Shown here: piece by piece, positions 25,396-64,000 of the stretch
How the letters are laid out: the number at the start of each line of letters is the position of its first letter
How positions within the stretch are numbered: position 1 is the first letter of the stretch
IMG/VR virus record: IMGVR_UViG_2901146262_000001
Coordinates: 1 to 64,000 of that record
Length of the DNA: 64,000 nucleotides
Origin: a virus
Taxonomy: Duplodnaviria; Caudoviricetes
Reading direction: 5' to 3' (one strand)
Made by a program: the position numbers and the translations under genes
The notes under the pieces: generated by a model
The model's database searches: none
Seen by the model: only the letters and a program-made list of their open reading frames with translations
What the model was told of the DNA's origin: nothing

Positions 25396-25568
25396 ATAAT
25401 TAACAACTCCCTTTAATAACTGACATATTTAACATATATTATAATGTCAACAAAAGGTTAAGTCAATCACTATTCAGAAAAATACCCAACTTTAGTCCCC
25501 TATATCCAAACTAATATGTATATTTTAAATTTCGAGATAGGGGACTAATAGGGGATAAAAGATGAATT

Positions 25569-26582
25569 TTAACCAAATATGTTATTACGTTCCTCTTCAA
25601 AGTCACGTAAATCGTAATGCTGAATTGTCGTTGACACATCAGAATGGTGTGCGATGTATTTGGAAACCATCTCTAACTTGACACCTTGCTCCAATAAGTA
25701 GGTAATACAACTAGCTTTAAATAAATGCGGATTAATTCTTCTGTTTAATATGTAAGATAAATTTTCTGAACAGAAGTAATCTGCCCATGAAGATGACATT
25801 TGTCCAAAAACCCCGTTATGTTTTGTAGTAAAAATGTAGTCACTTTCATACCCACGCTTTTCAACCCACAACTTCATGTAATCATACGCTTCCTTGTCAA
25901 TCATGTATGGTTCGATTTTCCCATCTTCTCCAGAACCTTTAAGACGAACGTTATGACTCATAATAAAACTCTTATCTTCAGGGAATGGGTCTTTTAATAT
26001 ACTCGTTTTAAATTGAATAATTTCACTTCGACGAGCACCGACATTGAAGGCAGTAGCAAGCCATGCCATACCTAGGTAATTCTTATCTTTTTCCAATATA
26101 TCCATCATTTCCTTGTACTCATCATAAGTCACCTTTATTTTTTCGTAAACTTGATTCTTAGGAATAGCTGGTAATCCTCTAGTCAGGTTCCTAAATGAAC
26201 TGTAAGTTTTTACTTCATCAGCTATAAAATTCTCTATATAATTCATCAAACTAGAAACGCATGCCTTTTTAAAATTGATACCACTGGAAGACATTCCTCT
26301 ATCTTTAAGAAAAGACATATATCTCAACATGTCTCTTTTGGTTAATTCATGCATTGGTTTATTGTTTAACGAATTAAGCAGAAAGTAGCCAAAATGTCGA
26401 AGTCCAGATGTATATTGTTTTCTAGTTTGAGGAGAATGGTTTTGTGCAGACAAGTATTCACCTACAAATTCTCTGTACTCCTGATTAACTTCTTTCCACA
26501 TTTCATCTGTGACAACTGGCATCTTTTTAGCTCTTTGCCTTAGCATATTTTTTTCTATCTCTTTACTCATATTCTCCACCAT
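25569..26582 (-). CDS. Tyrosine recombinase within the tail module (YomM-like)
   Basis: SPQTRKQY N-terminal domain; GARRSE; NPHLFK (K replaces the R of HxxR); HHSDVSTT..HY. Confidence 0.85.
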   Translation of the reverse strand: MVENMSKEIEKNMLRQRAKKMPVVTDEMWKEVNQEYREFVGEYLSAQNHSPQTRKQYTSGLRHFGYFLLNSLNNKPMHELTKRDMLRYMSFLKDRGMSSSGINFKKACVSSLMNYIENFIADEVKTYSSFRNLTRGLPAIPKNQVYEKIKVTYDEYKEMMDILEKDKNYLGMAWLATAFNVGARRSEIIQFKTSILKDPFPEDKSFIMSHNVRLKGSGEDGKIEPYMIDKEAYDYMKLWVEKRGYESDYIFTTKHNGVFGQMSSSWADYFCSENLSYILNRRINPHLFKASCITYLLEQGVKLEMVSKYIAHHSDVSTTIQHYDLRDFEEERNNIFG

Positions 26583-48150: not shown

Positions 48151-49209
48151 ATGAATAACGTATATGAATTAAATAGAAATGAAGTATATGATGATATTGA
48201 AACATTCCTAGAGGATTTGAAGCATGGTAGTGATAAGACGCATCAGAGGTATAAAGCGAGCATTGAGTTGTTCTTTAACTGGACAGAGGATAACAGATAC
48301 ACCAGTGGAGATGTTTATTTTTTAACACCTATAGATATTACTAATATTGAATATACAACAATGCAGAAGTTCAGGACATTCCTAAAGGATGAGAGAAGGT
48401 ACGCCAATTCATCTACGAACAATACAATGACTGCTATTTATTCTTTATTCACTCATCTGAAGAAGGTTAAGAAAAACAAATACAAGATCCAACCAGATGA
48501 ATTGAGGTTGAAAAGTTTAAGTTTGACTGATGAGAATCATCACGGAGATATTGACTGGGAAGAGTCTGATAAGATGATTGAATATGTTAGTGGACTACCT
48601 AATAAAAAATTACCTAAAGTAAAGGCTGCGTTGATTCATACAGCAAGAATGACAGGTATTAGATTAAACGGTCTGCTGGGTCTTGACTATACAGATCTAC
48701 GCAGAGAAGGTGGAATGTGGGTATTGCACCATGCAATCAAAGGTAAGAAACATGCACAAGCTATCCGAGACGATCTGGCTGAGATGTTATTAGATTTAAG
48801 AAAAGATGAAAATGATAAGAATGAGAAAGTGTTTAAGTTATCCAGTAAGACAGTGGAGAGAATGATGAAGGAGATCAATGAGGCTATTGGTATTGATGAG
48901 AGTAGACAGGTTGTATTTCATAGCATTAGAAGATTATATGGCGGGGAAACATATGCTGCTTCTGGCAATGATATTATGAAGGTTAAGGATTATCTTGGCC
49001 ATAGTTCGATTGATACATCTAGAGGATACGTTGAAAGAAGTCAAAACCTAAAGGATTCCCCCGCTCTATACATTGGGTTAGATATGGATGAGTCAATGGT
49101 AGATCACTTGTCTGCAGATGATTGGAAGAAGTTATTTAAAGAAATGAGTAGAGGGTCACAATATGAAATAATTAACAAGATGAAAGAAATGGGAATGAGT
49201 CATTCTTAA
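48151..49209 (+). CDS. Tyrosine recombinase / integrase with complete catalytic set
   Basis: TGIR, FHSIRR, LGHSS..TS.GY; N-terminal S..T..RY domain. Confidence 0.88.
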   Translation: MNNVYELNRNEVYDDIETFLEDLKHGSDKTHQRYKASIELFFNWTEDNRYTSGDVYFLTPIDITNIEYTTMQKFRTFLKDERRYANSSTNNTMTAIYSLFTHLKKVKKNKYKIQPDELRLKSLSLTDENHHGDIDWEESDKMIEYVSGLPNKKLPKVKAALIHTARMTGIRLNGLLGLDYTDLRREGGMWVLHHAIKGKKHAQAIRDDLAEMLLDLRKDENDKNEKVFKLSSKTVERMMKEINEAIGIDESRQVVFHSIRRLYGGETYAASGNDIMKVKDYLGHSSIDTSRGYVERSQNLKDSPALYIGLDMDESMVDHLSADDWKKLFKEMSRGSQYEIINKMKEMGMSHS

Positions 49210-49234
49210 TTGAATGGCTTTTCTGTTTGTGTAT

Positions 49235-49266
49235 TTGACAAATTTATTAGGTGATATTATAATACA
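49235..49266 (+). promoter_or_regulatory. SigA promoter overlapping the operator motif
   Basis: TTGACA-17nt-TATAAT; contains ATTAGGTGATATTATAATACA. Confidence 0.7.
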
Positions 49267-49277
49267 TTCAAGGGAGT

Positions 49278-49490
49278 AAAAATCCATGAAAATTTTACAC
49301 TTGGGTTTTGCAAAAAAAGATGTTTTTTAAACAATTCCATGATAAAAGTACAACACATAGAGCGTAATATGAGAAATCATATACAGGACGTGGTTTACGG
49401 TGATTTTGCATATAATTAAAAACACAAATCTGTGAAAATTTTTCTTTTTGACCCTCTAATTTTTCAAAAATCCATGCTCAAAGTACAACA
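49278..49490 (+). repeat. Iteron-like direct repeats
   Basis: TCCATGATAAAAGTACAACA (49336) and TCCATGCTCAAAGTACAACA (49471), plus degenerate copies near 49280 and 49426; AT-rich tract follows. Confidence 0.5.
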
Positions 49491-49693
49491 TATTACTTCT
49501 ATATTATTAGATCTATTAATACTATATTATTCTCCGACAGCTTTATAATTGTTCTTTTTCATTTCATTCAAAGAAAATTATACGTGTCGATGTTGAATAA
49601 AACTGCTTGTTGGCATGTGTTGTGGTGTGTTTTACATGAATTATCTTATGTATTGGTTGTTTTGTAATTATAAAATTAAAAAGGGGTGTCTAA

Positions 49694-50407: not shown

Positions 50408-51730
50408 CTCAAGTGCATCATCTACATAGTTAGGTGTTAGATAAAATATGATATATAAAATTTGTAACTCAGATTAATTTCTGGGTTATTTTTTATGGAT
50501 CGATAGACAGTGTATCGAATGAATGTAGGTGCAGCATGGATTATACTATTAATATGCATCATGTATAGGCTTAAATTGACGTATCGACTACTTTGTCTCG
50601 AACAAACATAGGCTTGGCAAGGGTTATACGGTGATTATACATAGCTTTTTGTTAAAATGAGTAAATATTGGTGTAGTATGATATGAGGAAAACTATTGAT
50701 ACTATTGACTTCATTCGAGACGCTCCCGAGACCGTTTACGAGACAAAATTTGCATAATTTACGTATATATTTATATTTTAATTTATATTATTTTACATTT
50801 AATTTGGCTAATTTATATTGAGCGTGGAAATGGAACAGTTGGCCTTATATATGCGGAATATTCTATATTCATGGACTTTTCAGACCCCCCTCTAATGGGT
50901 GAAACCCTTTGATACCATTGATATTTACTGTCCTACTAATATACGTTATACCGACAGTTTCGCTGATAATCATTGGTGTGACAATGTTTATGATTAATTG
51001 GAAAGTATATACTTTAATGTAATAAATTAACTGACAATAGACTATACCGCTTGTGTGTACCACCTTAAATGTAAAGCAAACTTTACTTTTCGCCTTAGTA
51101 ACACAAAAATATAATTGCAAGTATTATAATATAAAAGGTACTAAATATTAATCACTACCTTGTATTAAACAGTAGTATAGATCCAATATAAAATATAATA
51201 AATATCCATAAAATTGTATAATCATACTAACTCTGTCTCACTCTCTCGCCACTCTGTCCAATAAATATATATAATACAGTCAATATAAATCAATAAGTAA
51301 ATGTAATCATATAATCTCAATCAAACTAAACCTATATTTCAATTGTATTATATATAAAATTAAATAATAAAATAAATATAAAAATAATATTATAATATAT
51401 AAATGTAACCGAACATAGGCAAGCACATCATGAGCAACACATACCCATATCATCATGCAGTCACATCACACACATGCACCATGTATCAATAGGCATAGGC
51501 AATCAATAGTATCAATCATACTCATGCACGTTAAGCCTATGCATGCCACACACTCTACTCTATTACGATCTATCCTATATACTCTAGTCTATCCATTCAA
51601 TCACACATACAATCGTACAATAGGCAGCCAATCAATATATAATATAATTGTATATAATGCACAATCAAATGTATCAAAGTATACACAATCAACAAACTTT
51701 AATTATATACTCAATTAAGTCAATATATAC

Positions 51731-51759
51731 TTGTATAAGTATATGATTCGTGTTATAAT
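51731..51759 (+). promoter_or_regulatory. SigA promoter with extended -10 at the start of the small-gene array
   Basis: TTGTAT-17nt-TATAAT with TG upstream of the -10. Confidence 0.65.
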
Positions 51760-52083
51760 ATACTTATACAGAGTTAAGGAAAGGGATTGATTTCCACTGT
51801 CCAAACTCTAATCGAGTATCAGCTTACTAATGAACATTGACAATCTTATACAACTATCCTATCAATAGGAATGCTACTCATGGACAAGAAAAAGATGCAC
51901 GGATCATTGCACGTTATAGCATATGGAAGTATGATAAGCATACGATACATGGATAAGATGCCATGAACCAAGTAACATACCATAGCATGAAACAGTAGCA
52001 ATCACATTGTATTATCATATGAATGCATTATAATCTATATAGTATATTGATATGGAAATACAATAAGAAGGGAAGTAATAGCA

Positions 52084-52302
52084 ATGAGATACAATCAAAA
52101 ATTAGCTACAATATGTGATTACTTGCAAGCAATTGATAAGAACGGTTTCTATCATGAATTATTAGACGAGTATTCCAATGGTGAAATAAGTTTAACCGAT
52201 GCATTAGAGGAATGTAAACAGTCATTAGAATCATTAAAGCATGAAACAGATGTTACAGACGCAAGAACAATACAATCATTTATAAACTATATTAACTACT
52301 AA
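52084..52302 (+). CDS. Hypothetical early protein
   Basis: ORF with a purine-rich RBS. Confidence 0.6.
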   Translation: MRYNQKLATICDYLQAIDKNGFYHELLDEYSNGEISLTDALEECKQSLESLKHETDVTDARTIQSFINYINY

Positions 52303-52336
52303 GCAATTACATAATTATAAAAGGAGACAATACAAT

Positions 52337-52666
52337 ATGAATATAGAACAATTTAAACTAGATTTAATAGATGAGGGCTACCAACTAACAAATAATATAC
52401 ATGAAGGCATATGGATACTGACGGACGGTAGTATGATTGACGGTGTATACGACATGGGAAAGCGTTCCGAGGAACACAGAATGATGGAATCATTCACCGA
52501 TATAGACAGGTATGACGATTCATTCTGGGACGTTGTAGTAAAGGAATATAGTCTTGTCATGATCATTCCAGAGACTCAATGCATTCTAGTTAAGCCGTGG
52601 CAGACAGTCACACAGGAACAACAATCAATAATGGATCAATTAGGTTATGAAGTAGAACAATACTAA
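52337..52666 (+). CDS. Hypothetical early protein
   Basis: AAGGAG RBS; GIWIL.DGSMI motif. Confidence 0.7.
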   Translation: MNIEQFKLDLIDEGYQLTNNIHEGIWILTDGSMIDGVYDMGKRSEEHRMMESFTDIDRYDDSFWDVVVKEYSLVMIIPETQCILVKPWQTVTQEQQSIMDQLGYEVEQY

Positions 52667-52710
52667 TATTTTTTAATTAAAATTAAGTAACAATATAACG
52701 AATAAAGCAC

Positions 52711-52739
52711 TTGCATTTACCATTAAGTAATGTTATAAT
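52711..52739 (+). promoter_or_regulatory. SigA promoter with two operator copies
   Basis: TTGCAT-17nt-TATAAT; operators at 52681 and 52722. Confidence 0.7.
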
Positions 52740-52795
52740 ATAATTATAGCAAGGTTAGGAAATACAAAATAAATCAACTCAAAGGAGAAAATATA

Positions 52796-53077
52796 ATGAA
52801 AACTTTACTCGGTGTATCACTATTAATTAAAGTATTGATTGTCCCAACGTTTGCAGGCGACATTGCAGCTAATGAAGTGTTGAATTGTGAGGTTGTTCCA
52901 CTATCAGAATACGGATTCGAGCAACAATCAGAATATCATGAGTATGTTTGCAAGAATCCAAGAAATGACGCTGATTTTACAATTATCTATGATGTATCTG
53001 ACGAATACAAGTTAGGCGATAATCTTACAGTAGGACTTAATAAGCATAATGAAGTAATTTCAATGGACAAACAATAG
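52796..53077 (+). CDS. Secreted/exported hypothetical protein
   Basis: MK + hydrophobic signal ending TFA; AAGGAG RBS. Confidence 0.65.
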   Translation: MKTLLGVSLLIKVLIVPTFAGDIAANEVLNCEVVPLSEYGFEQQSEYHEYVCKNPRNDADFTIIYDVSDEYKLGDNLTVGLNKHNEVISMDKQ

Positions 53078-53106
53078 TAACTAAAATTAAAAGGAGAATG
53101 ATAAAA

Positions 53107-53310
53107 ATGAGTTACCCAAAAGCATATCAACCAGAACGAGGGTATAAGTATCAAATATTAGTCAAAACGCCTTACGATAGAGCATACGAGCATTGCGACT
53201 ATGCAGCGGACAGGAAGGAATTTAAGCATTTAACAAATGAATACAAATTAGCATATGGTGCAGGATATGAATTTAAGCCTATATTACTTCCACAAAAATA
53301 TTGGAAATAA
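53107..53310 (+). CDS. Hypothetical early protein
   Basis: AAGGAG RBS. Confidence 0.65.
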   Translation: MSYPKAYQPERGYKYQILVKTPYDRAYEHCDYAADRKEFKHLTNEYKLAYGAGYEFKPILLPQKYWK

Positions 53311-53336
53311 ACTATATTAAAAAGGAGATAAATAAA

Positions 53337-53678
53337 ATGATAATACAAGCTAACGAACAAATGGCAAAGGAAATTAAAGTTGATACTCTAAAATTAAGAT
53401 CGCATATGTTAGACATGGCATATGATGGAAAAGAGGGCTTGCCACAATGGAACGGCATAAAATCTGGCAGCTACCTTAACAGAAAAACATCAAAGGAGTA
53501 CGTTATCAATAAATTAAATAATCTAATTGACCATAAAGCAATTAATATTACATTACAAGAACAATGCCGAAAAGCCGTAATAATAATAGATGAAAACATG
53601 AACGAATGGGAAATAATAGATAGGCTTATGAAGCATGGAATACATGGTTATTATTCCGGAAAAGTAATAATAGATTAA
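53337..53678 (+). CDS. Hypothetical early protein
   Basis: Start moved to the ATG after AAGGAG. Confidence 0.65.
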   Translation: MIIQANEQMAKEIKVDTLKLRSHMLDMAYDGKEGLPQWNGIKSGSYLNRKTSKEYVINKLNNLIDHKAINITLQEQCRKAVIIIDENMNEWEIIDRLMKHGIHGYYSGKVIID

Positions 53679-53726
53679 TCAATTTTATTTACCTAAAATT
53701 AAGTAGCATTATACTATAAATAATGC

Positions 53727-53755
53727 TTGCAATTACATTAAGGTGATGTTATAAT
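53727..53755 (+). promoter_or_regulatory. SigA promoter with two operator copies
   Basis: TTGCAA-17nt-TATAAT; operators at 53697 and 53737. Confidence 0.7.
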
Positions 53756-53813
53756 ATAATTAACAGTTAAGAAGTAATAAAAAATAAATCAATTCAAAGG
53801 AGCAATAAACACT

Positions 53814-54077
53814 ATGACAACAATAATACATCTATCTAAAAACATTCAAGAGTTACCCAAGCAAATAATAAATTGGGAAATAACACCCGAAGAGGTTAAG
53901 GAATTTATAATATCAAACGGCACAGATTATAGGGTTTTCTCAAGTCAGGAATTAATAATATATAACGGAATGAAAATGATAGCAAGTTGCACAATAGGTG
54001 GTATTGCAGACATGGAAGACGATACAAGGTTTGATATAGAGAATTGTTGGACAGAGCAAGGCAACATATGGATATAG
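53814..54077 (+). CDS. Hypothetical early protein
   Basis: AAGGAG RBS. Confidence 0.65.
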   Translation: MTTIIHLSKNIQELPKQIINWEITPEEVKEFIISNGTDYRVFSSQELIIYNGMKMIASCTIGGIADMEDDTRFDIENCWTEQGNIWI

Positions 54078-54117
54078 CTTTAAACGCTCGCATAACAGAT
54101 TAAAAGGAGGAAATAGC

Positions 54118-54228
54118 ATGAGGGGAATAATAGACAAGATACAATCATATGAATTAGTTGATTACGGAATAATAATAATGTTTATCATATCATTAATAAT
54201 ATTAAATATAACTTGTTACAATCTATAA
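54118..54228 (+). CDS. 36-aa single-TM peptide (not in the ORF track)
   Basis: AGGAGG RBS; MRGIIDKIQSYELVDYGIIIMFIISLIILNITCYNL. Confidence 0.5.
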   Translation: MRGIIDKIQSYELVDYGIIIMFIISLIILNITCYNL

Positions 54229-54264
54229 TTAAGTATCTTTATAGTAAAATAAATTATAAAACAC

Positions 54265-54293
54265 TTGACTATTAACTCATATGAGTATATAAT
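54265..54293 (+). promoter_or_regulatory. SigA promoter with the palindrome ACTCATATGAGT in its spacer
   Basis: TTGACT-17nt-TATAAT. Confidence 0.7.
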
Positions 54294-54335
54294 AAAGATA
54301 GTTAAAAAATACAAATTAATTGGAGGTTTTACATT

Positions 54336-54626
54336 ATGAGAAAAATAGAGAATCTGACAGTAGCATTTAAAAAAGAATTGTCTAACATTGAACTAAAGGG
54401 AATTGAAATAATAATAAATGAGAATAAAGAAATCCCATCAACTGATAAATTGGGAATGGCGTACACATCATCAAGCAGCTATGGAATGTATAACGCATGT
54501 AACGAACAACAATACTATGATGGAATAATAATAAGCCATTTTGCAATAACGGAAAATAATATGCTAATTATGGCATGTCATGACAATAATGAAAACTACA
54601 CTTATTACGAAGTGGAAGACATATAA
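54336..54626 (+). CDS. Hypothetical early protein
   Basis: GGAGG RBS. Confidence 0.65.
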   Translation: MRKIENLTVAFKKELSNIELKGIEIIINENKEIPSTDKLGMAYTSSSSYGMYNACNEQQYYDGIIISHFAITENNMLIMACHDNNENYTYYEVEDI

Positions 54627-54706
54627 AAATACAAAATACATAGGGATTATTTACTCAATCCCTAACATACATAAAATAAAATTTAATTATAAGAGGTGAA
54701 AACACT

Positions 54707-54889
54707 ATGAATAAAGAAATTAACTTCATTGATCCATATGAAAATAAAATCAGTCTAATTGTAAATAATGGAAGTGTAACATTTAAGGCGTTTGGTCGTG
54801 AAACTTTACACCCTGCATTTATGATTAATGATATTATTGAAGTATTGGAAAATGATTACAATTGTAAAATGTTAGCGAATATCGCATAA
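54707..54889 (+). CDS. Hypothetical early protein
   Basis: GAGGTG RBS. Confidence 0.6.
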   Translation: MNKEINFIDPYENKISLIVNNGSVTFKAFGRETLHPAFMINDIIEVLENDYNCKMLANIA

Positions 54890-54944
54890 ATAAAATTTTT
54901 TAACTACTATTAAGTATCATTATAGTATAATTGGAGGTTATTAA

Positions 54945-55228
54945 ATGGTTATTGCAGAGGTGCGCCACGTATGGAAAAAAGACATTAACGGCAAGGCTTC
55001 ATTGTATAAAGAGGTGTTAGTCAATGGGAAATGGTATGAGTTAAATTGCGAGGGTAGAATAATATGATTAAACGGTTTTTAATTGGTCTGTCACTATCTG
55101 TAATTATGATAGCAGGAATCGCAACGGATAGCACAGTACGAACAAGTAATATAAGCGACACTATGAAGCAATTACAAAGCAAGTCATGCAGTAATTATAT
55201 TGTCAATAATGAACAGATTAAATGTTAA
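54945..55228 (+). CDS. Two coupled micro-ORFs (54945-55067; 55064-55228, with a signal-like N-terminus)
   Basis: GGAGG RBS; ATGA overlap; translated by hand. Confidence 0.5.
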
Positions 55229-55250
55229 TTAAATACAGGAGGTTTTGAAA

Positions 55251-55520
55251 ATGAAATTTTATACAGTTATAGCTCATTTTGATTTATCAATGCATACTGA
55301 ATGGGAAGTTAAAAGCTTTACTAGGTTAGAGAATGCGAGCAAGTTTGGCAAGGAAATGAAACAGAAATTTTTAACAATGATCAATGGGAGCAAATTAGAT
55401 CAAATGGAAAGCCATGAGGACGATAGAGGGGAGCCACAATTCTATAACTTTTATGGTGTATGCGAATTAGGCGAAAACTTTGCAACGATTGAAATTAGCG
55501 AACAGGAATTTGCTGATTAA
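55251..55520 (+). CDS. Hypothetical early protein
   Basis: AGGAGG RBS. Confidence 0.65.
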   Translation: MKFYTVIAHFDLSMHTEWEVKSFTRLENASKFGKEMKQKFLTMINGSKLDQMESHEDDRGEPQFYNFYGVCELGENFATIEISEQEFAD

Positions 55521-55564
55521 TTTAAAACTATAATTTTATTAGAAAAAAAAGGGGTCGGAGTGTT

Positions 55565-55735
55565 ATGGAAATAGAAAATGTGCTGAAAGTTGTTGACGAT
55601 ACTATTGAGCAAATGAATAAAAATGCAATGGATTGCTTACAAGAAAGAGATAGAAAGAATGCTAAAAAATATATGCAATATGCAGATGGGATAAGAATGG
55701 TTAAAGATAATATCGAATTTAATTTTAGCAATTAA
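55565..55735 (+). CDS. 56-aa hypothetical protein (not in the ORF track)
   Basis: GGAG RBS; translated by hand. Confidence 0.55.
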   Translation: MEIENVLKVVDDTIEQMNKNAMDCLQERDRKNAKKYMQYADGIRMVKDNIEFNFSN

Positions 55736-55787
55736 TTAAATAAAAGTCACAATTTATTAAAAAATTAAATTAAAAGGAGAATGTAAA

Positions 55788-55985
55788 ATGGAAAAAGTAA
55801 AAGTATCTATTTTAGGAGAAATTGAAAATGATGAAAAATTATATAGTGTGGCAATATTCCCTGTAGGAACAGAGATAGCTTCATACACTGAATTTGGTTT
55901 CCCTAGTCGTGAAGACGCTGAATTTCATGTTAGCGAAATGATGGATATTGAAATTATTGAAACGGAAATTACAGAAGAATTTTAA
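55788..55985 (+). CDS. Hypothetical protein
   Basis: AAGGAG RBS. Confidence 0.65.
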   Translation: MEKVKVSILGEIENDEKLYSVAIFPVGTEIASYTEFGFPSREDAEFHVSEMMDIEIIETEITEEF

Positions 55986-56021
55986 GATAAAAACAACAAT
56001 TTAAAAGGAGAATGATTATAA

Positions 56022-56201
56022 ATGGAATACAATAGACAATCAACAATTGACTGGTTAGAAAATAATCAAATTAATGGAGCATTTGAAGGATTTCCAGAAA
56101 ACAACTTAAATTTTAATGAGTTAAGCAATGAAGTATTAGAGTTTTACTTTTATGAATCAGTGTTACCAGAACGGTTAGAACAAGAAGAACAAGAAGGATA
56201 A
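56022..56201 (+). CDS. 59-aa acidic hypothetical protein (not in the ORF track)
   Basis: AAGGAG RBS; translated by hand. Confidence 0.55.
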   Translation: MEYNRQSTIDWLENNQINGAFEGFPENNLNFNELSNEVLEFYFYESVLPERLEQEEQEG

Positions 56202-56222
56202 AGCAAAGGAGAATGATCCACA

Positions 56223-56435
56223 ATGAAAAAGGATAACAAAAAAACAATGTCAGAACTATTATCAGAGTATAAGCATGGAAGTGATCAATATGAAACACGT
56301 TGCAACAAATGCTTATCGTACTTTGAAAGTGATGACGAATTAGAACTATTTTATGAAGACGCAAACGACTTAGAAACAGGATTTAAAGGTTGTCCAGAAT
56401 GCGAGACAGATAACTATTTAATGGACTTGAATTAA
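56223..56435 (+). CDS. Zn-ribbon-like small protein
   Basis: CNKC...CPEC; AAGGAG RBS. Confidence 0.65.
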   Translation: MKKDNKKTMSELLSEYKHGSDQYETRCNKCLSYFESDDELELFYEDANDLETGFKGCPECETDNYLMDLN

Positions 56436-56474
56436 AAAAACTACATTTCAACTTAAAAATTAGGAGGAATAAAA

Positions 56475-56729
56475 ATGAATACAATTCTTATAGATTTTAG
56501 CAACTTAGAAAACGAGGTAAAGCAAAAGGAAGTTGAATTATTACATGGTGAAAATTTATCTATGTTCATTAAGGATAAGTCTAATAACATATATGAAGCA
56601 GAAAAATATTTTGTAGGAAGTTATTTAGATGGGTTGCAATCAAACAAAGCAAAGGTAAGCTTTCATAAAATTTTGAGTAAGAATATAGAAGCAGTGGAAA
56701 ACCTTAGAATGAAAAAACTAATCGGATAA
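56475..56729 (+). CDS. Hypothetical protein
   Basis: AGGAGG RBS. Confidence 0.65.
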   Translation: MNTILIDFSNLENEVKQKEVELLHGENLSMFIKDKSNNIYEAEKYFVGSYLDGLQSNKAKVSFHKILSKNIEAVENLRMKKLIG

Positions 56730-56763
56730 AATCAATATTATATTAGGAGGAATTGGAATGATT

Positions 56764-57057
56764 ATGGCACAATCGCAATTAACAAATTTGGTAGACAGCT
56801 TAAAGTATGGACATGGAAATATAATTAGTAAAAATGAAAACTATGCAATAACAAAACCTTTAAATACATGGGATACCAACTACAGACTTTACGACAAAAA
56901 GGAAGGATTAACCTATCTTATTGATTGTGAGGACGTACAGGAAAACGAGGAACACTTAAATGAATATGGAGGTATCTTATTTCAAAGTCTTATAAACCTA
57001 GAAATTGAAGAAATTAAAAGCATATCATGGAAAACTGAAAAAGATAATTTTTATTAA
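56764..57057 (+). CDS. Hypothetical protein
   Basis: AGGAGG RBS. Confidence 0.65.
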   Translation: MAQSQLTNLVDSLKYGHGNIISKNENYAITKPLNTWDTNYRLYDKKEGLTYLIDCEDVQENEEHLNEYGGILFQSLINLEIEEIKSISWKTEKDNFY

Positions 57058-57080
57058 ACGACAAATAGGAGGAATGTAAA

Positions 57081-57251
57081 ATGATAGCAATTAAATGTAC
57101 ATATTCAAATGGTGATACATCTACAACAGACATAAACGGCACACTAGAAAGCGCAAAGGACTACTTTTTAAATCAGTGGTTTAACTTTGGGGACACGGAA
57201 GAAAAGCCACACGATGATATGCAGCAATGTATAAAAGTTGAATTAATATAA
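57081..57251 (+). CDS. 56-aa hypothetical protein (not in the ORF track)
   Basis: AGGAGG RBS; INGT.E.AK.YF motif. Confidence 0.6.
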   Translation: MIAIKCTYSNGDTSTTDINGTLESAKDYFLNQWFNFGDTEEKPHDDMQQCIKVELI

Positions 57252-57274
57252 AATTATTATTGGGAGGTTACGAC

Positions 57275-57508
57275 ATGAATATTAATTATAATGGTCTATC
57301 AGATAATGAGCAGGAAGTAATTGCAGCCACAATCAAGAATGGTTTTATGCATGGAATGATTGAAAATTTACATTGGAAAATAGGCTTTGAAACGCATGAC
57401 TGGGATAGTCAAGACGATAATTTACAGCACATTGCACACTTAATTAAAGAACATGATTGCACAAGCGGTGTTTATCCATCATGGAAATTAAAGTTTGAAA
57501 GAGTATAA
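57275..57508 (+). CDS. Hypothetical protein
   Basis: GGAGG RBS; start refined. Confidence 0.6.
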   Translation: MNINYNGLSDNEQEVIAATIKNGFMHGMIENLHWKIGFETHDWDSQDDNLQHIAHLIKEHDCTSGVYPSWKLKFERV

Positions 57509-57534
57509 ACAATATAATAATGGAGGTTGTCAAA

Positions 57535-57927
57535 ATGAAAGCAAATGCTTATGTAAAAATTGAGGAATCACCATCAAGTGGATATATTTCCATCAATGAG
57601 ATTATATTAGAAAATTATATTGATGAATCTTATAGGGAAAATATAGAAAGCGCAAAAGAATTTGATTTTAGAAATAAAGTAGAAACTTTGGAAGGTCATA
57701 AACTAAAGTATTTCTTCATGACAGTTGAATTTGACGGACGTAAAAAAAGTATTGCAGAAAATGACATTAAGCAATCATTAGAAAAGCAAGGGTTAGTCAC
57801 AAAGGTTGGCAGTAGCATGTTTGGCGGTTATTATCTACCAACAGAATATTTGCAAACAACTTTAAAAGAACAACTTAACAAAAGAAAAGAATTAATTAGC
57901 CAGGGGAAATATGAATTAATTGCATAA
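57535..57927 (+). CDS. Hypothetical protein
   Basis: GGAGG RBS; start refined. Confidence 0.65.
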   Translation: MKANAYVKIEESPSSGYISINEIILENYIDESYRENIESAKEFDFRNKVETLEGHKLKYFFMTVEFDGRKKSIAENDIKQSLEKQGLVTKVGSSMFGGYYLPTEYLQTTLKEQLNKRKELISQGKYELIA

Positions 57928-57978
57928 ATTCATTGTTTTATTCAGAGGACAACAATAAATTATATGGAGGTTGTTAAA

Positions 57979-58176
57979 ATGAATTGGGTAAAAAATAGCA
58001 ATTTTAAAGATTCTATAATAGAAAGAAGAAGCAAACAAAAATATTACGATATTAAAGTGATATACATGGACAGTACAACATATACAGGTATTTGGGCAAA
58101 CAATCCAGAAGAAGCAAAAAGCAAGGCTTATTATAAGTTTTTAGATGAAGATATAAGGAAAATAGAAATTCAATAA
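57979..58176 (+). CDS. Hypothetical protein
   Basis: GGAGG RBS; start refined. Confidence 0.6.
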   Translation: MNWVKNSNFKDSIIERRSKQKYYDIKVIYMDSTTYTGIWANNPEEAKSKAYYKFLDEDIRKIEIQ

Positions 58177-58215
58177 AACCGTTCTTATATTGAAAAATAA
58201 TTGGAGGTAATGAAA

Positions 58216-58398
58216 ATGAGTTATGAGTATATTGTGTCTTTTAACACTGATTTCGGAGAAGTTAGGGCAGTTATCGAGAATGATGAACCTATAGAAGATG
58301 ATAACACGTTGTACATGATTGCTTTAAATAAGATAAAAGAAAGTAGCGTTATGCAGATTACAGGCGAGTTAGACGAGTCGGACATTATGGAAATATAA
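58216..58398 (+). CDS. Hypothetical protein
   Basis: GGAGG RBS; start refined. Confidence 0.6.
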   Translation: MSYEYIVSFNTDFGEVRAVIENDEPIEDDNTLYMIALNKIKESSVMQITGELDESDIMEI

Positions 58399-58441
58399 CA
58401 AGTTAAAACCATTACTTTATTAAAAAATTGGAGGAATTAAA

Positions 58442-58781
58442 ATGATTGAATTAAATGAAAGAGTTGAGATTACACAGGGATATAGAACTGGTGATTTAGC
58501 AATGGTTATCTATGTTGACAATGACAATAATTTATGCAAAGTGGAATTTGATGATTATGAGTTTTATGGTTACGATATAAGCGATATTAGAAGTGTTTAC
58601 GCTTAATTCAATAAAACAAATATTTTAAGGGGTGGTTTGAATGAATGAAAAAGCAATGAGTTGGATTATTGAATTATTAGAGAGCGGTGAAGTTGAAAAA
58701 GCAAAAACTGTATTAAAAGATACTAAACACAGTATAGAAACAAAAAGAAGCAATGCAAAAAGTGGAAGAATATACATTTAA
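58442..58781 (+). CDS. Two micro-ORFs (58442-58606, SH3/KOW-like; 58641-58781)
   Basis: Each has an RBS; translated by hand. Confidence 0.5.
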
Positions 58782-58814
58782 GTTGAAATTAATCAATTAT
58801 GGGGGTATGGCACT

Positions 58815-59042
58815 ATGAATTTATTAACCAATGATCACATTAACTTATTAAAAAGTAATTTTGTATTAAGGAGTAAGTTTAATGTAAACGAATTTAGCTT
58901 TGACTGCCTAGAGGGTGAATGGCTAGTTACTAAAAATAACAACCATATTGACGTATTTACTTTTAGACTTATGGAAAATGAAGAGTTTGAACAGACAATA
59001 AATGATATATTCTATAATACTGAAAAGGTAACATTTCAATAA
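58815..59042 (+). CDS. Hypothetical protein
   Basis: G-rich RBS. Confidence 0.6.
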   Translation: MNLLTNDHINLLKSNFVLRSKFNVNEFSFDCLEGEWLVTKNNNHIDVFTFRLMENEEFEQTINDIFYNTEKVTFQ

Positions 59043-59068
59043 AATCAATCATTTAGGGGTGGTATAAG

Positions 59069-59399
59069 ATGGATCAACTAATAAAGGGTAGCAATAGTTA
59101 TAATTTTCTTAAATACATGCTTGATATAGCAAATGATTTAAAAAAGGAAGGGTATATAATAACAAGTGATATGACTATTAACGATGTAAGGGAGATTTAT
59201 TTCAGTCAAGAGAGGGCAGAACAATTTAAAAATAATCTTTAAGGGGTGATACAATATGTTTAAATTTATGAACACCAAAGAAAGATGCTTAGATTGTGGG
59301 GAAAAATTAAAAAATGAAACTCATATAATAAAAAATAAAGATGGACAGCATTTTTGTTCTAATTGGTGTAAAGACAATTGGAAAATGGATATTGAATAA
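59069..59399 (+). CDS. Two micro-ORFs (59069-59242; 59256-59399, CxxC/FCSxxC Zn finger)
   Basis: Each has a GGGGTG RBS; translated by hand. Confidence 0.5.
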
Positions 59400-59427
59400 A
59401 ATTAATCATTTAAAGAGGTGCAATGAT

Positions 59428-59625
59428 ATGGAATGCAAAGTTTGCGGACACAAGCATAATATAATAAGCTATGATCATTATGAGGTATCCCATGCAAATA
59501 CAGAAGAATTTATTCACATTCAAGGACATTTTACAATTGATTGGGGCAATGGATATAACAATTCACAAAGAGAAGTTTCTTTATATGCTTGTCCAGAATG
59601 TAATACTGTACAGATGGAAGTTTAA
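59428..59625 (+). CDS. Zn-ribbon-like small protein
   Basis: MECKVCG...LYACPEC; GAGGTG RBS; start refined. Confidence 0.6.
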   Translation: MECKVCGHKHNIISYDHYEVSHANTEEFIHIQGHFTIDWGNGYNNSQREVSLYACPECNTVQMEV

Positions 59626-59653
59626 AACAATATTATAATGATGTGTAAACGAT

Positions 59654-59860
59654 ATGAAACAATTTACAAACATTCCTTGTGACTTATATATCCATAAGGA
59701 CGAATTGCCAAAGATGGAACAAGGAGAACAAGGAACAGGCTACAAAGAAGTGACCAACAATGAACAGTATATACTTTATAGTAAACATGCTTTCCTGCAA
59801 ATAACAGAAAATGAAATAATAGATAAAAACAGTTATAAAGTATTATTCATAATGGAATAA
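59654..59860 (+). CDS. Hypothetical protein
   Basis: ORF within the array. Confidence 0.5.
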   Translation: MKQFTNIPCDLYIHKDELPKMEQGEQGTGYKEVTNNEQYILYSKHAFLQITENEIIDKNSYKVLFIME

Positions 59861-59888
59861 AATCAGTCTTTAAATGGAGGTAATTACA

Positions 59889-60080
59889 ATGGATAAATTG
59901 AATAGCTTTATTGAAAACAGATTAAAAGATGCGGAATCATACACAGAAAAAGCGGACTGTTTAGAGATAATAGAAATTACGTTGCAAAGTGTAAATAAGT
60001 TGAATGACAGTATTAAGCAACAGCTAGGCAAGCACTGGGAGCATATCAATAATGCAGAACATTTTAGATTACATGAATAG
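59889..60080 (+). CDS. Hypothetical protein
   Basis: GGAGG RBS; start refined. Confidence 0.6.
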   Translation: MDKLNSFIENRLKDAESYTEKADCLEIIEITLQSVNKLNDSIKQQLGKHWEHINNAEHFRLHE

Positions 60081-60544
60081 TGGCCGTGATTAATTATAAT
60101 CAAAAAAATTTAACCATAATTAGGTGACTATATAATACATTAGTATAAAATAGTAGGTTTTTTATTTCCTACTTTAAGGGTTGAAGCACCATTCAATTTT
60201 TAAACTAGAAAATAAAATAAATCAATGTATAAAAAGGGGTTGGAGAAATGGGAAACATCATTCTAGTGCCCATATAAGCAAGGCATGCAGGCTTTAATGT
60301 GATATTGATACTAGCATACAATAGTAGTTATAAAACCGTCAAAGTCGCTTATATCAAACAGTACAAATACAGTCTAAAATTAGCAAAAAATAAATTTAAA
60401 ATAAGCAACTTTGAAATGATTACTATAGAATTGAACAAATTCATATAACAGCACTACTCAAATATCGCTGCCATTTTCAACAAGCGCGGCGGGCGCGGGC
60501 GGCGGCAGAAAATAAAAATATAATATAAAAAGGGGAAATTTAAA

Positions 60545-60829
60545 ATGGAAAATGTATATTACTTTTATAACGGAACGGACAAACCTTGCGAGGTAGAATT
60601 AGACGAAATAATAATACAGGATAGTCTCATGGGGGATATGTTGGAGAGTTTCTGGGAAGATCACTCAGACTATGAGACAGACAAGGATAGTAGATACAAT
60701 GACGCTATGGGCATTACTTATGGAGTTTTGAGGAATCCAACGTTACAAGATTTTCAAGACATCAATGGCTATCACGGATTATCTCAAGAGGATTATTTAG
60801 AAGACTTTTTAATATATAGTTTTGCATAA
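60545..60829 (+). CDS. Acidic hypothetical protein
   Basis: AAGGGG RBS. Confidence 0.65.
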   Translation: MENVYYFYNGTDKPCEVELDEIIIQDSLMGDMLESFWEDHSDYETDKDSRYNDAMGITYGVLRNPTLQDFQDINGYHGLSQEDYLEDFLIYSFA

Positions 60830-60916
60830 ATGAAATCCATATAACAGAATCTGTATATTATCGCTGTCATTTTTGTAATAAAAATATTTAATTTAAATTG
60901 AATAGAGGTGTTCATT

Positions 60917-61042
60917 ATGAGGAAAAGTCCACCATTAGGAATCAGAAAAAGAGCAGGAGCCAATTATAAACATGGCGGTTGTTTAATGTATGTGGTAGCA
61001 GGAATTAGTGTAGTTATTATTGGAATTGCAACTATGATTTAA
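60917..61042 (+). CDS. 41-aa peptide with C-terminal TM helix (not in the ORF track)
   Basis: GAGGTG RBS; basic N-terminus and hydrophobic tail. Confidence 0.45.
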   Translation: MRKSPPLGIRKRAGANYKHGGCLMYVVAGISVVIIGIATMI

Positions 61043-61074
61043 TGGAATAGTTACTTTATAGGAGGGTAAACATT

Positions 61075-61272
61075 ATGGAGGAATATAAATGTGAGTCTTG
61101 TGGGGAATTTGTCAGAGAGGATTTTGGAGTTACCGCACTTAACGGTGAGTGGGTTTGCGATAATGATAAATGCAGAACATTAGACAATAATAATGACTCT
61201 ACGAATAATCTAGAAACAGTGTGGAACCAGTTAGATAATGCCGGAAGAGCACAATGCAGCAACAGACAGTAG
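61075..61272 (+). CDS. Zn-binding small protein
   Basis: CESC...C...C; AGGAGG RBS. Confidence 0.6.
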   Translation: MEEYKCESCGEFVREDFGVTALNGEWVCDNDKCRTLDNNNDSTNNLETVWNQLDNAGRAQCSNRQ

Positions 61273-61469
61273 GGCAAATCATGAAGGAGATTCGCAACGG
61301 TAAAGTATTTAGGAATGGATTAATGAAAATCAAGCTATATGACAAGGATAAAGACACATTCCAAGTAGACAGTTACTTTAATGGTATGGATCTCAGGGAG
61401 GTGCTGTCCGTTGTAACAATAAGAAGAATTATAAAGGACAATATTAAACAATATTATATGGAGGGGTGA
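61254..61469 (+). CDS. Hypothetical protein
   Basis: Overlaps the upstream ORF end; co-oriented. Confidence 0.55.
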   Translation: MQQQTVGQIMKEIRNGKVFRNGLMKIKLYDKDKDTFQVDSYFNGMDLREVLSVVTIRRIIKDNIKQYYMEG

Positions 61470-61471
61470 AA

Positions 61472-61795
61472 ATGAATATAATAATAGATAACACTATATG
61501 TACAGTGCAGTATAATAAAGTATATTGTAGCTATTCCGATTATATTAAGGTTCATAACAGATCTAAGGAGTTATTTAAAATGTGGTGTAATAAAAATGGC
61601 ATTAATCCAATCTGATAAAACAATCCTTTTAATTCATATAACAGCAAGGGTGAAATATCGCTGGAACTTATGCAATATTAAAAATAGGGAGGTAGCATTA
61701 TGAAGAATGTGAGGAGGTTTTTTAGATCTAAAACATTATGGGTAGCTGTTATTATTTTAATTATAGTAATATTTTCTTATGGTGAGGGTCGGTAA
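61472..61795 (+). CDS. Two micro-ORFs (61472-61615; 61700-61795, single-TM peptide)
   Basis: GGAGG-type RBS for each; translated by hand. Confidence 0.45.
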
Positions 61796-61869
61796 TTCGA
61801 AGAGTAGATTATTTTTTTGGATATAATTAGGTGACATTATAATAAAAAGAGAAAAAGGGGATATTAAAA

Positions 61870-62172
61870 ATGAATAACTTATTAGCTAAAAAGGAACTAA
61901 CAGCCGAGCAATTGTCAATGGTGCAATCTGAAGCAGGAAGAAAAGAGAAGTCAAAAGGTGTAGCGTATGCGCTTTGGTTTTTCTTTGGTGGGATTGGCGG
62001 TCATAGATATTATGCAGGAAATATCGGCTATGCAATCGGAATGACATTGACAGTCGGTGGTCTGGGTTTATGGACATTAATTGATGTGTTTCTAATCGGC
62101 AAAGCTATCGAAAAGAAGAACGAGGAAATCGAATTCGAAGCAATCCAGCAAGTAAAATCATTGGCTAAGTAA
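61870..62172 (+). CDS. TM2-domain membrane protein
   Basis: KS..VAY.LWFFFG..GGHRYY.G...W.LID.FLI TM2 signature. Confidence 0.88.
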   Translation: MNNLLAKKELTAEQLSMVQSEAGRKEKSKGVAYALWFFFGGIGGHRYYAGNIGYAIGMTLTVGGLGLWTLIDVFLIGKAIEKKNEEIEFEAIQQVKSLAK

Positions 62173-62241
62173 TATAAGAGTTTAAAGTGGCTGATACGTT
62201 GTATCGGTCACTTATACATAAATAAACAAGGAGGTTGTCTA

Positions 62242-62373
62242 ATGCGGTTGGTACACATAATAAACCATTACTTATTTGACACAGACACAATTAAATGGTC
62301 AGATGCGTTATTCTATTATGGAATAATAATAATAATGATTATCGTTTTAATTTGTACATTTACAGTTGGATAA
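62242..62373 (+). CDS. 43-aa single-TM peptide (not in the ORF track)
   Basis: AAGGAGG RBS; YYGIIIIMIIVLICTF. Confidence 0.5.
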   Translation: MRLVHIINHYLFDTDTIKWSDALFYYGIIIIMIIVLICTFTVG

Positions 62374-62390
62374 TTAAATTAAAATTATCC

Positions 62391-62428
62391 TTGACTAATC
62401 ACTCAATCGGGTATATACTTAATTGAGT
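62391..62428 (+). promoter_or_regulatory. Promoter and operator of the HTH-helicase operon
   Basis: TTGACT-17nt-TATACT; palindromes ACTCAATCGGGT and ACTTAATTGAGT. Confidence 0.6.
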
Positions 62429-62442
62429 TAATACTAACGAGG

Positions 62443-62646
62443 ATGATCGAAATGTTGAAGTTAAGACTAAAGAGTTATTTAGAAAAAAATGATATTACAC
62501 CTTACCAATTGGCCAAAATGACAAAAATTAGAATGGCTACAATTTATGGATATGTAACAGAAGAAAGAAGAAGTATCAATTTAGACAATCTGGAAAAAAT
62601 CATGAAAGCATTAGAGATTGAGGATATTAATATTCTGATTAAATAA
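62443..62646 (+). CDS. XRE/Cro-C1 family HTH regulator
   Basis: LK..L....IT.YQLA..T.I...TI........SI.LD.LEKI..AL. Confidence 0.88.
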   Translation: MIEMLKLRLKSYLEKNDITPYQLAKMTKIRMATIYGYVTEERRSINLDNLEKIMKALEIEDINILIK

Positions 62647-62659
62647 AGAGGGTGAAAAC

Positions 62660-64000
62660 ATGTTGGTTAAAGATCATGATAAAAGTAAGGCAATAATAGA
62701 AACTGATTATAATTACGAATTATATAGAGAGATTAAACAAGTGCCAGAATCAAATTATAATATGGAACTAGATGCATGGGTATTAGATAAGAAGTATATT
62801 AATGCATTATTAAACAATCTAAAAAACATGAATTTATCTGTCAAGAATACCGTTGACCACACAAGACAAATCGGCTATTGCAAAGAAGTATTAAGTGAGA
62901 CAGTAAAAACGATTAAGCTGTCCGTGGTAAAGGAAAATAAAAAGACTATTGTCGTTAATTTTGACTTTGATTATGGGGTGCTTAACACAATTAAAATGAT
63001 TGAGGGTAGCAACAGACGATTCAATGGCAAGGATAAGTCGTGGGCAATCAGTAAAGACGAATTACAATGGCTGCACACTAAGCTAGATGAATTGAAATAC
63101 GTTGACACAAGCGACTTAAATCAATTTATTTCATGTAACAGCCAACCCGAAATATCGCTGGGAGATTTCCCAAAAATGGATCGAACACCTTTTGACTTTC
63201 AAATTGATGTAGCAAATCAAATGTTGAAGGAGAAGAAAATTATTAATGGACTTGAAGCAGGCTTAGGGAAAACAACAATTACAGTAATGGTTACAGAAAA
63301 GATTCAGTCGAAGACGGTAGTCATCTGTCCGGCATCGGTAAAACGTAACTGGGAGAAGGAAATCCGTATTGTTAATCCAGATGCAGATGTGGCTATTTTA
63401 AACGGCAAGGATGAATACAAGACAGCTCAATATCTGATTTTGAATTATGATATTTTGGATCGTTTCTATATGGATATTAAGAATGATAATTTTGAGACTC
63501 TTATCTTTGATGAAGCACACAAGCTAAGAGGTATTACAGGTAAAGGAACGCCATCATCGAAAAGAGCAAAATTTGGAATGGCATTGACTGAAAATATGGA
63601 GTATGTATTTCCGTTAACAGCAACACCATTTATCAATCAGACTAAAGATATTTTTAACCTATTAAGTATTATTGATAACTCTATGGCTAATAATTGGTAT
63701 GCTTTTGCAAACACTTATTGTGGAGCAGAGAATAACGGCTTTGGAACAAGTTATAACGGGTCTAGTAACCAGTCCAACCTATTTGAAAGGCTTTATCCTC
63801 ATGGTATGATTAGACTGCGTACAGAGGATCATATCGACTTGCCAGAACGTATCAGAAATTTTATCCCATTAGACATTAACTTAAAGCAGTATGAAGCTAA
63901 AATCCAGAAGTATATGGATGAAAGAGATAGTTACGAGGACAATGGACAGCACCTAGTGATGTTCGGAGCAGCGAGAAGACTATTGGCCAAAGAGAAGGCA
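62660..64000 (+). CDS. SNF2-family (HARP/SMARCAL1-like) helicase, truncated by the window end; not in the ORF track
   Basis: Translated by hand: PFDFQ, EAGLGKT, VICPASVK.NW..EI, LNYDIL, FDEAH, LTATP; HARP-like N-terminal repeats. Confidence 0.88.
   Translation, partial: MLVKDHDKSKAIIETDYNYELYREIKQVPESNYNMELDAWVLDKKYINALLNNLKNMNLSVKNTVDHTRQIGYCKEVLSETVKTIKLSVVKENKKTIVVNFDFDYGVLNTIKMIEGSNRRFNGKDKSWAISKDELQWLHTKLDELKYVDTSDLNQFISCNSQPEISLGDFPKMDRTPFDFQIDVANQMLKEKKIINGLEAGLGKTTITVMVTEKIQSKTVVICPASVKRNWEKEIRIVNPDADVAILNGKDEYKTAQYLILNYDILDRFYMDIKNDNFETLIFDEAHKLRGITGKGTPSSKRAKFGMALTENMEYVFPLTATPFINQTKDIFNLLSIIDNSMANNWYAFANTYCGAENNGFGTSYNGSSNQSNLFERLYPHGMIRLRTEDHIDLPERIRNFIPLDINLKQYEAKIQKYMDERDSYEDNGQHLVMFGAARRLLAKEKA

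Follow-up and report, generated by a model that had tools for sequence, protein, structure and literature searches.

Integrons rely on long attC sites, which form bulged hairpins and travel together with the cassette, and pdif sites are 28-bp XerC/XerD sites acted on by host enzymes. Cassette exchange between heterospecific sites is, to our knowledge, a laboratory practice that has no described natural equivalent. Susskind and Botstein's modular theory of phage evolution predicted conserved linkers at module borders, of which few are known so far. Here a 16-bp interrupted palindrome, TAAAA-N6-TTTTA, is described from a window of 64,000 nucleotides (the whole stretch of DNA analysed, positions 1 to 64,000 of IMG/VR record IMGVR_UViG_2901146262_000001; G000:C1:402996-466995). 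The window sits within a large prophage, taken as C1:403-520 kb (117 kb), with the layout of Bacillus phage SPbeta, in which minus-strand late genes extend to approximately 48 kb and are followed by a long plus-strand series of small early genes. A sequence-only reading of this window had proposed that the palindrome marks sites of gene-cassette shuffling in an integron-like array of tiny genes, and its copies do coincide with points at which related phages differ in gene content. What is shown is the motif with its spacing, its position at junctions, the ordered six-base centres beside unrelated cargo and the ends of shared blocks at sites; that the copies are joints at which exchange takes place is, on this evidence, very likely. 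The best overall reading, which we hold with moderate confidence, is that of conserved, position-specific crossover joints; more tentatively, exchange would proceed by conservative site-specific recombination catalysed by a phage tyrosine recombinase.

Among known arrangements, the closest in manner of working would appear to be the heterospecific lox and FRT sites used for exchanging cassettes. As in lox, FRT and dif, inverted arms flank an asymmetric centre of 6 bp, within the 6-8 bp of such sites, partners seemingly need the same centre, and the genome here houses many distinct centres, no two of them identical; the prophage sites differ in conserving 5-6 bp per arm and in occurring naturally in tens per genome. 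With regard to a shared centre, conserved joints show one difference in 78 positions and block ends fall at identical 16-mers, and junctions between unlike centres also occur. The sequence-only interpretation was supported in part, but the term integron-like was not supported in its strict sense. By the consensus scan, units may be mostly promoterless single genes stacked behind upstream promoters, and a tyrosine recombinase gene lies nearby (a PF00589 protein is encoded 6 kb upstream of the array), but the sites are 16 bp long, do not fold and remain stationary and in fixed order while the cargo changes, whereas attC travels with its cassette. No attI/IntI arrangement was seen, attI not being recognised and no search aimed at IntI-specific features having been made, and an integron proper was rejected, with neither an attC-type folding site nor a site travelling with its cassette present. 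The pdif/dif modules of Acinetobacter plasmids similarly have short recombinase-type sites flanking small modules that differ between related replicons; the prophage arms differ in being identical and short with unconserved outer positions, and the sites in keeping a fixed order with a separate centre for each. A Xer/pdif system was rejected, there being no 11-bp arms and no distinct XerC and XerD arms. The promoter-early stem-loop (PeSL) elements of T4-type phages are likewise repeated intergenic elements that bound small accessory genes and mark points of shuffling, but the prophage joints have no promoter or stable stem-loop and carry an individual centre per copy; PeSL was also rejected, with no early promoter and stem-loop at each cassette border. 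Like the linkers of modular theory, the joints are short conserved sequences at module borders where the homology of relatives breaks, and they differ in their palindromic format, their per-site address and their spread across the genome. They may represent the clearest known case of such linkers.

The densest 6-kb stretch for the motif in the entire genome is window 54005-60004, with 16 hits, in an array region of 29% G+C where none of 20 small ORFs (55251-60080) reached a Pfam gathering score. The 15 copies listed by the sequence-only reading were correct in all coordinates and letters, and 14 of them fit TAAAA-N6-TTTTA with at most one mismatch, the copy at 59623 having two. Their placement on or just after a stop codon applied to most, the TAA of the left arm forming the stop in 7/15 and the site lying 3-8 nt past the stop in 6/15, but the copies at 57038 and 59227 overlap ORF ends. 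A ribosome-binding site follows within a few bases 3' of the right arm, as had been noted, and the motif is present at 13 of the 19 junctions between 55518 and 59889 in our own gene list, in agreement with the claim that most junctions carry it. The spacer is constant in length, being six bases throughout, but its bases have no consensus. Of the 26 perfect copies in the prophage, 22 avoid the interior of open frames with 100 codons or more; a perfect copy at 11275-11290 lies within the 2250-aa ORF 8302-15054 and is hence not at a gene border. Consensus scanning alone found no strong plus-strand promoter or terminator in 55-60 kb, consistent with the proposal of single-gene units behind upstream promoters; by the same scan the best plus-strand promoter-like sites were at 52716, 53727 and 54265, and matches inside 55-60 kb were at chance level (88 vs 71 +/- 10). 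The array and its joints are given below in window coordinates, with partners in relatives, namely a prophage in a different genus of the host's family (G135), one in a third genus (G233) and G120.

55251..60080, plus strand: array of 20 small ORFs (46-130 aa), with a separate ribosome-binding site for each
54887..54902, plus strand: extra copy absent from the list of 15, TAAAT-aaaatt-TTTTA, on a stop codon
55523..55538, plus strand: joint ctataa, perfect arms, 5 nt past a stop; same centre collinear in G135 (818925), G233 (126382) and G120 (68302), flanks unrelated
55741..55756, plus strand: joint gtcaca, one arm mismatch; same centre next after ctataa in G120 (68533)
55988..56003, plus strand: joint acaaca, in-order partners in G135 (819200) and G233 (126599)
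56727..56742, plus strand: joint tcaata, left-arm TAA is the stop codon; in-order partner in G135 (819576)
57038..57053, plus strand: doubtful copy with an AAAAA arm, within the final codons of ORF 56758-57057; no collinear partner in relatives
57925..57940, plus strand: joint tcattg, TAA is the stop of a 130-aa gene; partner in G135 (820079)
58174..58189, plus strand: joint ccgttc, without a collinear partner; G120 has the reverse complement of this centre at 73678, perhaps by chance
58404..58419, plus strand: joint ccatta, in-order partners in G135 (820501) and G233 (127379)
58612..58627, plus strand: joint caaata, perfect; in-order partners in G135 (820705) and G233 (127668), same centre in phage Perkons (23766)
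59040..59055, plus strand: joint tcaatc, TAA is the stop; no partner found
59227..59242, plus strand: joint ataatc, the stop of ORF 59069-59242 inside the right arm; no partner found
59397..59412, plus strand: joint ttaatc, TAA is the stop of a 47-aa zinc-finger-like gene; in-order partner in G135 (820922)
59623..59638, plus strand: weak copy with two arm mismatches, outside the set with at most one mismatch
59858..59873, plus strand: joint tcagtc, TAA is the stop
61616..61631, plus strand: joint caatcc, perfect, immediately 3' of a TGA stop

The centres of these joints recur in the relatives in conserved order. This prophage and that of G135 share 17-18 identical centres compared with 3.3-4.2 expected, the maxima in 1000-2000 permutations being 11-14. 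One run comprises seven centres in order (ctataa, acaaca, tcaata, tcattg, ccatta, caaata and ttaatc; window 55523-59397, G135 818925-820922), and a second run, beyond the window, contains five identical centres and one with a single change. In G233 the centres ctataa, acaaca, ccatta and caaata are collinear with those here and a second run of four is present, whilst in G120 ctataa is followed by gtcaca. A collinear partner with the same centre was found in at least one relative for 8 of the 15 originally listed copies, and a degenerate copy of joint ttaatc (about 127841) follows a homologue of the 47-aa zinc-finger-like gene in G233. At shared joints the flanks differ at 334 of 520 positions, the arms at 13 of 130 and the centre at 1 of 78, and both flanks were unalignable at every joint. 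Proteins encoded between shared joints gave no blastp match at E < 0.01, and a few homologues occupy other slots. Sharing of centres with SPbeta was at chance level for both this prophage (5 vs 2.6 expected) and G135 (1 vs 2.0), indicating that the sets of centres are lineage-specific. None of the 89 prophage sites has a palindromic centre, and there are no identical pairs of centres among them, a deficit that is not significant against the 1.5 expected.

Two further features of the centres were observed. Neighbouring centres in window 55988-59873 are alike (tcaatc, ataatc, ttaatc and tcagtc; ccgttc, ccatta and caaata), as might result from duplication followed by drift, and 12 adjacent pairs in this prophage are at a distance of two or less compared with 4.3 expected (P = 0.0008); this likeness is missing in G135 (6 vs 4.7 expected) and in SPbeta (0 vs 2.5). 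In G135 two joints of locus L028 (C1:834363 and 834734), both with the centre gataat and 371 bp apart, bracket one small gene, the arrangement expected had a circular cassette inserted at a joint.

The suggestion that breakpoints in gene content between SPbeta-like genomes might fall at the motif was supported by comparison of SPbeta 81-102 kb with Goe13, phi3T and SPbetaL4 by megablast, the three relatives not being independent of one another. Internal block ends fell within -3..+18 of a site start in 17 of 55 cases, a zone amounting to 1.7% of bases (P = 4e-17), and when intergenic block ends alone were considered 15 of 36 lay in the site zone, which covers 8.3% of intergenic bases (P = 6e-8). 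Nine of the 12 junction sites in this region were used at least once. A 3213-bp block with 100% identity between phi3T and SPbeta is bounded exactly by the sites at 83688 and 86886, and in another SPbeta region the homology of three relatives stops where the site that follows yorZ has its right edge. At SPbeta 87599 and 95129, comparison with phi3T and SPbetaL4 revealed a homologous left flank and left arm followed by a different centre and right flank, so that unlike joints must at times recombine with one another, unless such junctions form in some other way.

Spacing of the arms is specific to six bases. With at most one mismatch the window contains 39 matches compared with 17.4 +/- 4.3 in dinucleotide shuffles, none of 100 of which reached 39, and in 52000-64000 there were 17 hits with N6, 7 with N5, 14 with N7, 9 with N8 and 9 with N9, the N7 count consisting largely of N6 sites displaced by one base. 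The sequence-only reading had proposed comparing N6 with other spacings and with shuffled DNA, and on both counts N6 proved enriched. Perfect copies in this genome and in other phages were distributed as follows.

This prophage, C1:403-520 kb: N6, 26; N2-5 and N7-11, 0-5
Remaining genome, 4.23 Mb: N6, 49; other spacings, 26-62 with no peak
AT-rich windows of 10 kb elsewhere in the genome, 80 kb in total: N6, 1; other spacings, 1-6
Phage SPP1: N6, 0; other spacings, 0-1
SPbeta early region: N6, 27; other spacings, mean about 0.9
G135 prophage: N6, 31; other spacings, mean about 0.7
Psychrobacillus phage Perkons, 20-70 kb: N6, 9; other spacings, 0-2
Geobacillus virus E3, 91-141 kb: N6, 15; other spacings, 1-4

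The early region of this prophage contains 20 of its perfect copies, and here and in the corresponding regions of G135 and SPbeta the mean for other spacings was 0.7-0.9. No other 5-mer arm showed an N6 excess in these three regions, information content is at background level outside 5 bp per arm, and DNA flanking the prophage has no N6 peak. In E3 the TAAAA/N6 combination ranked top in an unbiased scan over all arms and spacings (15 vs 1-4), with a sixth arm position (A...T) in 13 of 15 sites. When one mismatch was allowed, Perkons 20-70 kb gave an N6 peak of 41 but also 38 hits with N11, other spacings giving 6-22. The motif was found in SPbeta, Perkons, E3 and three prophages of other genera and is a property of SPbeta-like phages.

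Searches for closer relatives of the locus yielded little beyond these genomes. Megablast of 55000-62200 against the phage collection gave no nucleotide similarity to any record, matches to the SNF2 helicase protein in that collection were all below 31% identity, and a search of viral contigs for related loci found none. Matches to the ccatta joint on viral contigs (at least 117 stretches) were rejected as chance because neighbouring centres were present in 0 of the 80 loci inspected. Within the host's family a DNA search matched 49 of 246 genomes, mostly over short lengths, a protein search with 49694-50407 matched 5 of 246, and broad synteny with this prophage was found in G135 alone. A literature search found no description of the palindrome, including in the excerpts consulted of a review of SPbeta (PMC8270828) and of the Perkons paper (PMC13245101).

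Taken as a crossover joint, the element would function as follows. The uniform 5-bp arms would be binding determinants and the six-base centre, unique to each position in a genome, would be the strand-exchange region needing a match and would act as an address. The unit between successive centres would comprise a right arm, a ribosome-binding site, one or a few ORFs and a left arm that often provides the TAA stop. When related phages or prophages meet, exchange at two joints with matching centres would swap the intervening cargo, with unique centres holding the exchange in register and with gene order and reading frames left intact. Since the stop lies in the left arm and the ribosome-binding site after the right arm, a crossover in the centre would always leave the intact end of one gene next to the intact start of another. 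The logic of a tyrosine recombinase is suggested by the combination of inverted arms with a six-base asymmetric centre that partners seemingly need in common. More tentatively than any of this, the joints may constitute a natural genome-wide scaffold of tens of heterospecific sites in which one recombinase, recognising a minimal AT palindrome, and an address in each centre permit slot-for-slot swaps of single genes by co-resident phages with gene order undisturbed.

The prophage encodes two tyrosine recombinases that could serve such sites.

48151..49209, plus strand: YopP-like tyrosine recombinase, 352 aa, PF00589; candidate enzyme
25569..26582, minus strand: YomM-like tyrosine recombinase, 337 aa, PF00589, in the tail-gene region
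25556..25571, minus strand: perfect copy of the motif at the end of the YomM-like gene, whose stop codon it overlaps

That a phage tyrosine recombinase performs the exchange is a tentative proposal, for which the YopP-like protein would be the first candidate enzyme and the YomM-like protein the second. The YopP-like protein has 23.6% identity to SPbeta YopP, and alignment to XerA, a XerC-like chain and five orthologues showed a full catalytic set of R, K, H-x-x-R, H and Y. With homologues also encoded by G135, G233, G013, G120 and SPbeta, such a protein is present in all six site-bearing phages examined; at approximately 25-38% identity the set R, K, H, R/K, H, Y is kept in 6/6, the second catalytic Arg being Lys in SPbeta YopP and the G233 orthologue with other catalytic positions intact. 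The YomM-like protein is 63.6% identical to SPbeta YomM, and its R, K, H, H and Y align, with H-x-x-K replacing H-x-x-R. SPbeta itself integrates by means of a serine recombinase, SprA, whereas no role is assigned to YopP (PMC8612738). The extra tyrosine integrases of Perkons are called unexplained, and the palindrome is unmentioned, in passages of a 2026 paper on that phage (PMC13245101).

Several observations weigh against the involvement of a recombinase acting on matched centres. The conserved arm is 5 bp (6 in E3), far below the 11-13 bp of known tyrosine-recombinase core sites. Lactococcus phage 949 encodes a YopP-like homologue (approximately 28% identity) and its first 50 kb has no N6 peak (3 perfect copies vs 0-3 at other spacings), and the G135 genome has no YomM-like orthologue yet carries the sites. 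Support from the better conservation of the centre than of the arms (Fisher P = 0.019) is weakened by a partial bias, 12 of the 13 pairs having been found through their centres. Here the 130-aa gene precedes tcattg, but in G135 its homologue comes after that joint and is followed by ccatta; as this gene and the sequences at SPbeta 87599 and 95129 precede unlike centres, exchange does not always take place between matching ones. Where the flanks are unrelated the 16-mer is the sole sequence shared, and any homology-guided process would map there too. Finally, a preprint on phi3Ts x SPbeta hybrids made in the laboratory (bioRxiv 10.1101/2020.05.06.055103) places 15 of their 16 recombination sites within ordinary homology; the one non-homologous site, described as 'following yosA', may correspond to the joint at SPbeta 116415.

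Much of this would be expected if the 16-mers were conserved linkers offering microhomology to annealing proteins or to host recombination, with the centre keeping the register, an explanation we regard as rather unlikely but the strongest of the alternatives. The joint being the only sequence shared between unrelated flanks, the prevalence of homology in the laboratory hybrids and the non-cognate junctions with a break at the left arm all favour it, as does the annotation of SPbeta YorG as a Sak4-like annealing protein alongside a RecJ-like exonuclease. It leaves without explanation, however, universal palindromic arms exactly six bases apart and the tolerance of arm mismatches where centres are kept (13/130 vs 1/78), and 16 bases is generally regarded as very short for exchange driven by annealing. 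A phage nuclease might alternatively cut the interrupted palindrome in or beside the centre, with repair from a co-infecting relative or re-ligation following and centre-specific ends preserving order. The 5-N6-5 format is a common one for dimeric DNA enzymes, and HNH endonucleases and ATP-dependent ligases are annotated in SPbeta-like phages, but the phages examined are not known to have a candidate nuclease in common, no search aimed at one having been made, a phage would pay heavily for cutting itself at approximately 30-90 places in its genome, and such a mechanism is considered improbable.

A main role other than recombination, with crossovers as a by-product of the docking of a dimeric protein (such as the ParB/DndB-like YopQ) or of a translation or mRNA signal, is likewise unlikely, if a little less so than cutting by a nuclease. 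The position of the site between stop codon and ribosome-binding site, arms that give TAA on both strands and a palindrome suited to a dimer are in its favour, and SPbeta, Perkons and E3 each have an annotated ParB-like gene adjoining the one for the YopP-like protein. All six sites folded as RNA gave a minimum free energy of 0 kcal/mol, however, comparison of 48000-64000 with Rfam (E up to 0.1) returned nothing, and symmetric double-change arm variants, which should be tolerated if the arms paired, were at chance level. An RNA hairpin or terminator was rejected on the basis of the folding energy and of the lack of a terminator inside 55-60 kb, and a seemingly compensatory arm variant, TATAA-N6-TTATA (8 copies in G135), was set aside as a promoter family. 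With neither a fold nor compensatory variants, the arms appear to be recognised as sequence, which suggests a protein acting on double-stranded DNA. The sequence-only reading had offered RNA processing or protein binding as its alternative, and neither this nor the by-product explanation accounts for each copy keeping its own six-base centre across genera amid replaced surroundings. It is vanishingly improbable that TAA stops, AT-rich spacers and T-rich leaders together gave rise to the motif by chance. The region has 29% G+C, and with two mismatches every spacing gives 28-54 hits, but the N6 peak is restricted to the prophage and not seen in AT-rich host DNA or SPP1, and this explanation was refuted by the shuffle (0/100), spacing, arm and host-DNA controls. 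Position-specific crossover joints, perhaps served by a phage tyrosine recombinase, remain the reading preferred here.

A number of other repeated elements were observed in these genomes. SPBRE, the operator of the SPbeta repressor MrpR, resembles the junction palindrome in recurring along SPbeta-like genomes, and the protein that binds it has a tyrosine-recombinase fold, MrpR/YopR being a catalytically dead relative, but it is a 15-bp motif at about ten promoters, whereas the palindrome has another sequence, lies at gene ends and is far more numerous (PMC10516654). SPBRE was rejected as the identity of the palindrome, being a different, promoter-linked motif. In the window an 82-nt promoter region is repeated (52665-52746 and 53681-53762), and a 28-nt repeat of the ATTAAGTA..ATTATAGTA type is present at 53693, 54223 and 54904, just 5' of the best sigma-A-like promoters; by analogy with SPBRE, these repeats are candidate operators of a predicted MrpR-type repressor. 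In G135 a set of near-identical early promoters consists of TTGAC followed by TATAA-acNNaa-TTATAAT (L024-L030; 812552, 833375, 845919, 850271, 863634, 875674 and 882259). An element of approximately 43 nt (family D1), which had no match in Rfam, has four copies at 60429-60471, 60825-60867, 61622-61664 and 63119-63161, with the conserved blocks TCATATAACAG and ATATCGCTG separated by approximately 10 nt. Three of the four copies are intergenic, one being immediately 3' of joint 61616, and the fourth lies within the SNF2-helicase ORF; in G135, near 840271, a tcatataacag block is likewise 3' of a joint. Window 60486-60512 contains a run of approximately 25 bases that is almost purely G/C, within a 464-nt non-coding gap.

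Why the breaks in phage mosaicism fall so often at gene borders is a long-standing question, to which these joints contribute a sharply defined, addressed linker. They occur in isolated, tractable phages (SPbeta, phi3T) of a laboratory bacterium, making the mechanism directly testable. Were a recombinase to drive the exchange, nature would be seen to employ site-specific recombination in a new way, as a counterpart of recombinase-mediated cassette exchange, and a role would be provided for orphan tyrosine 'integrases' (YopP, YomM and relatives) in a whole group of phages that integrate by means of a serine recombinase. In that case the fast turnover of small accessory genes in these arrays would be explained as well; among such genes, several in SPbeta relatives are known to act in counter-defence, with Gad1 and Gad2 annotated in SPbetaL records.

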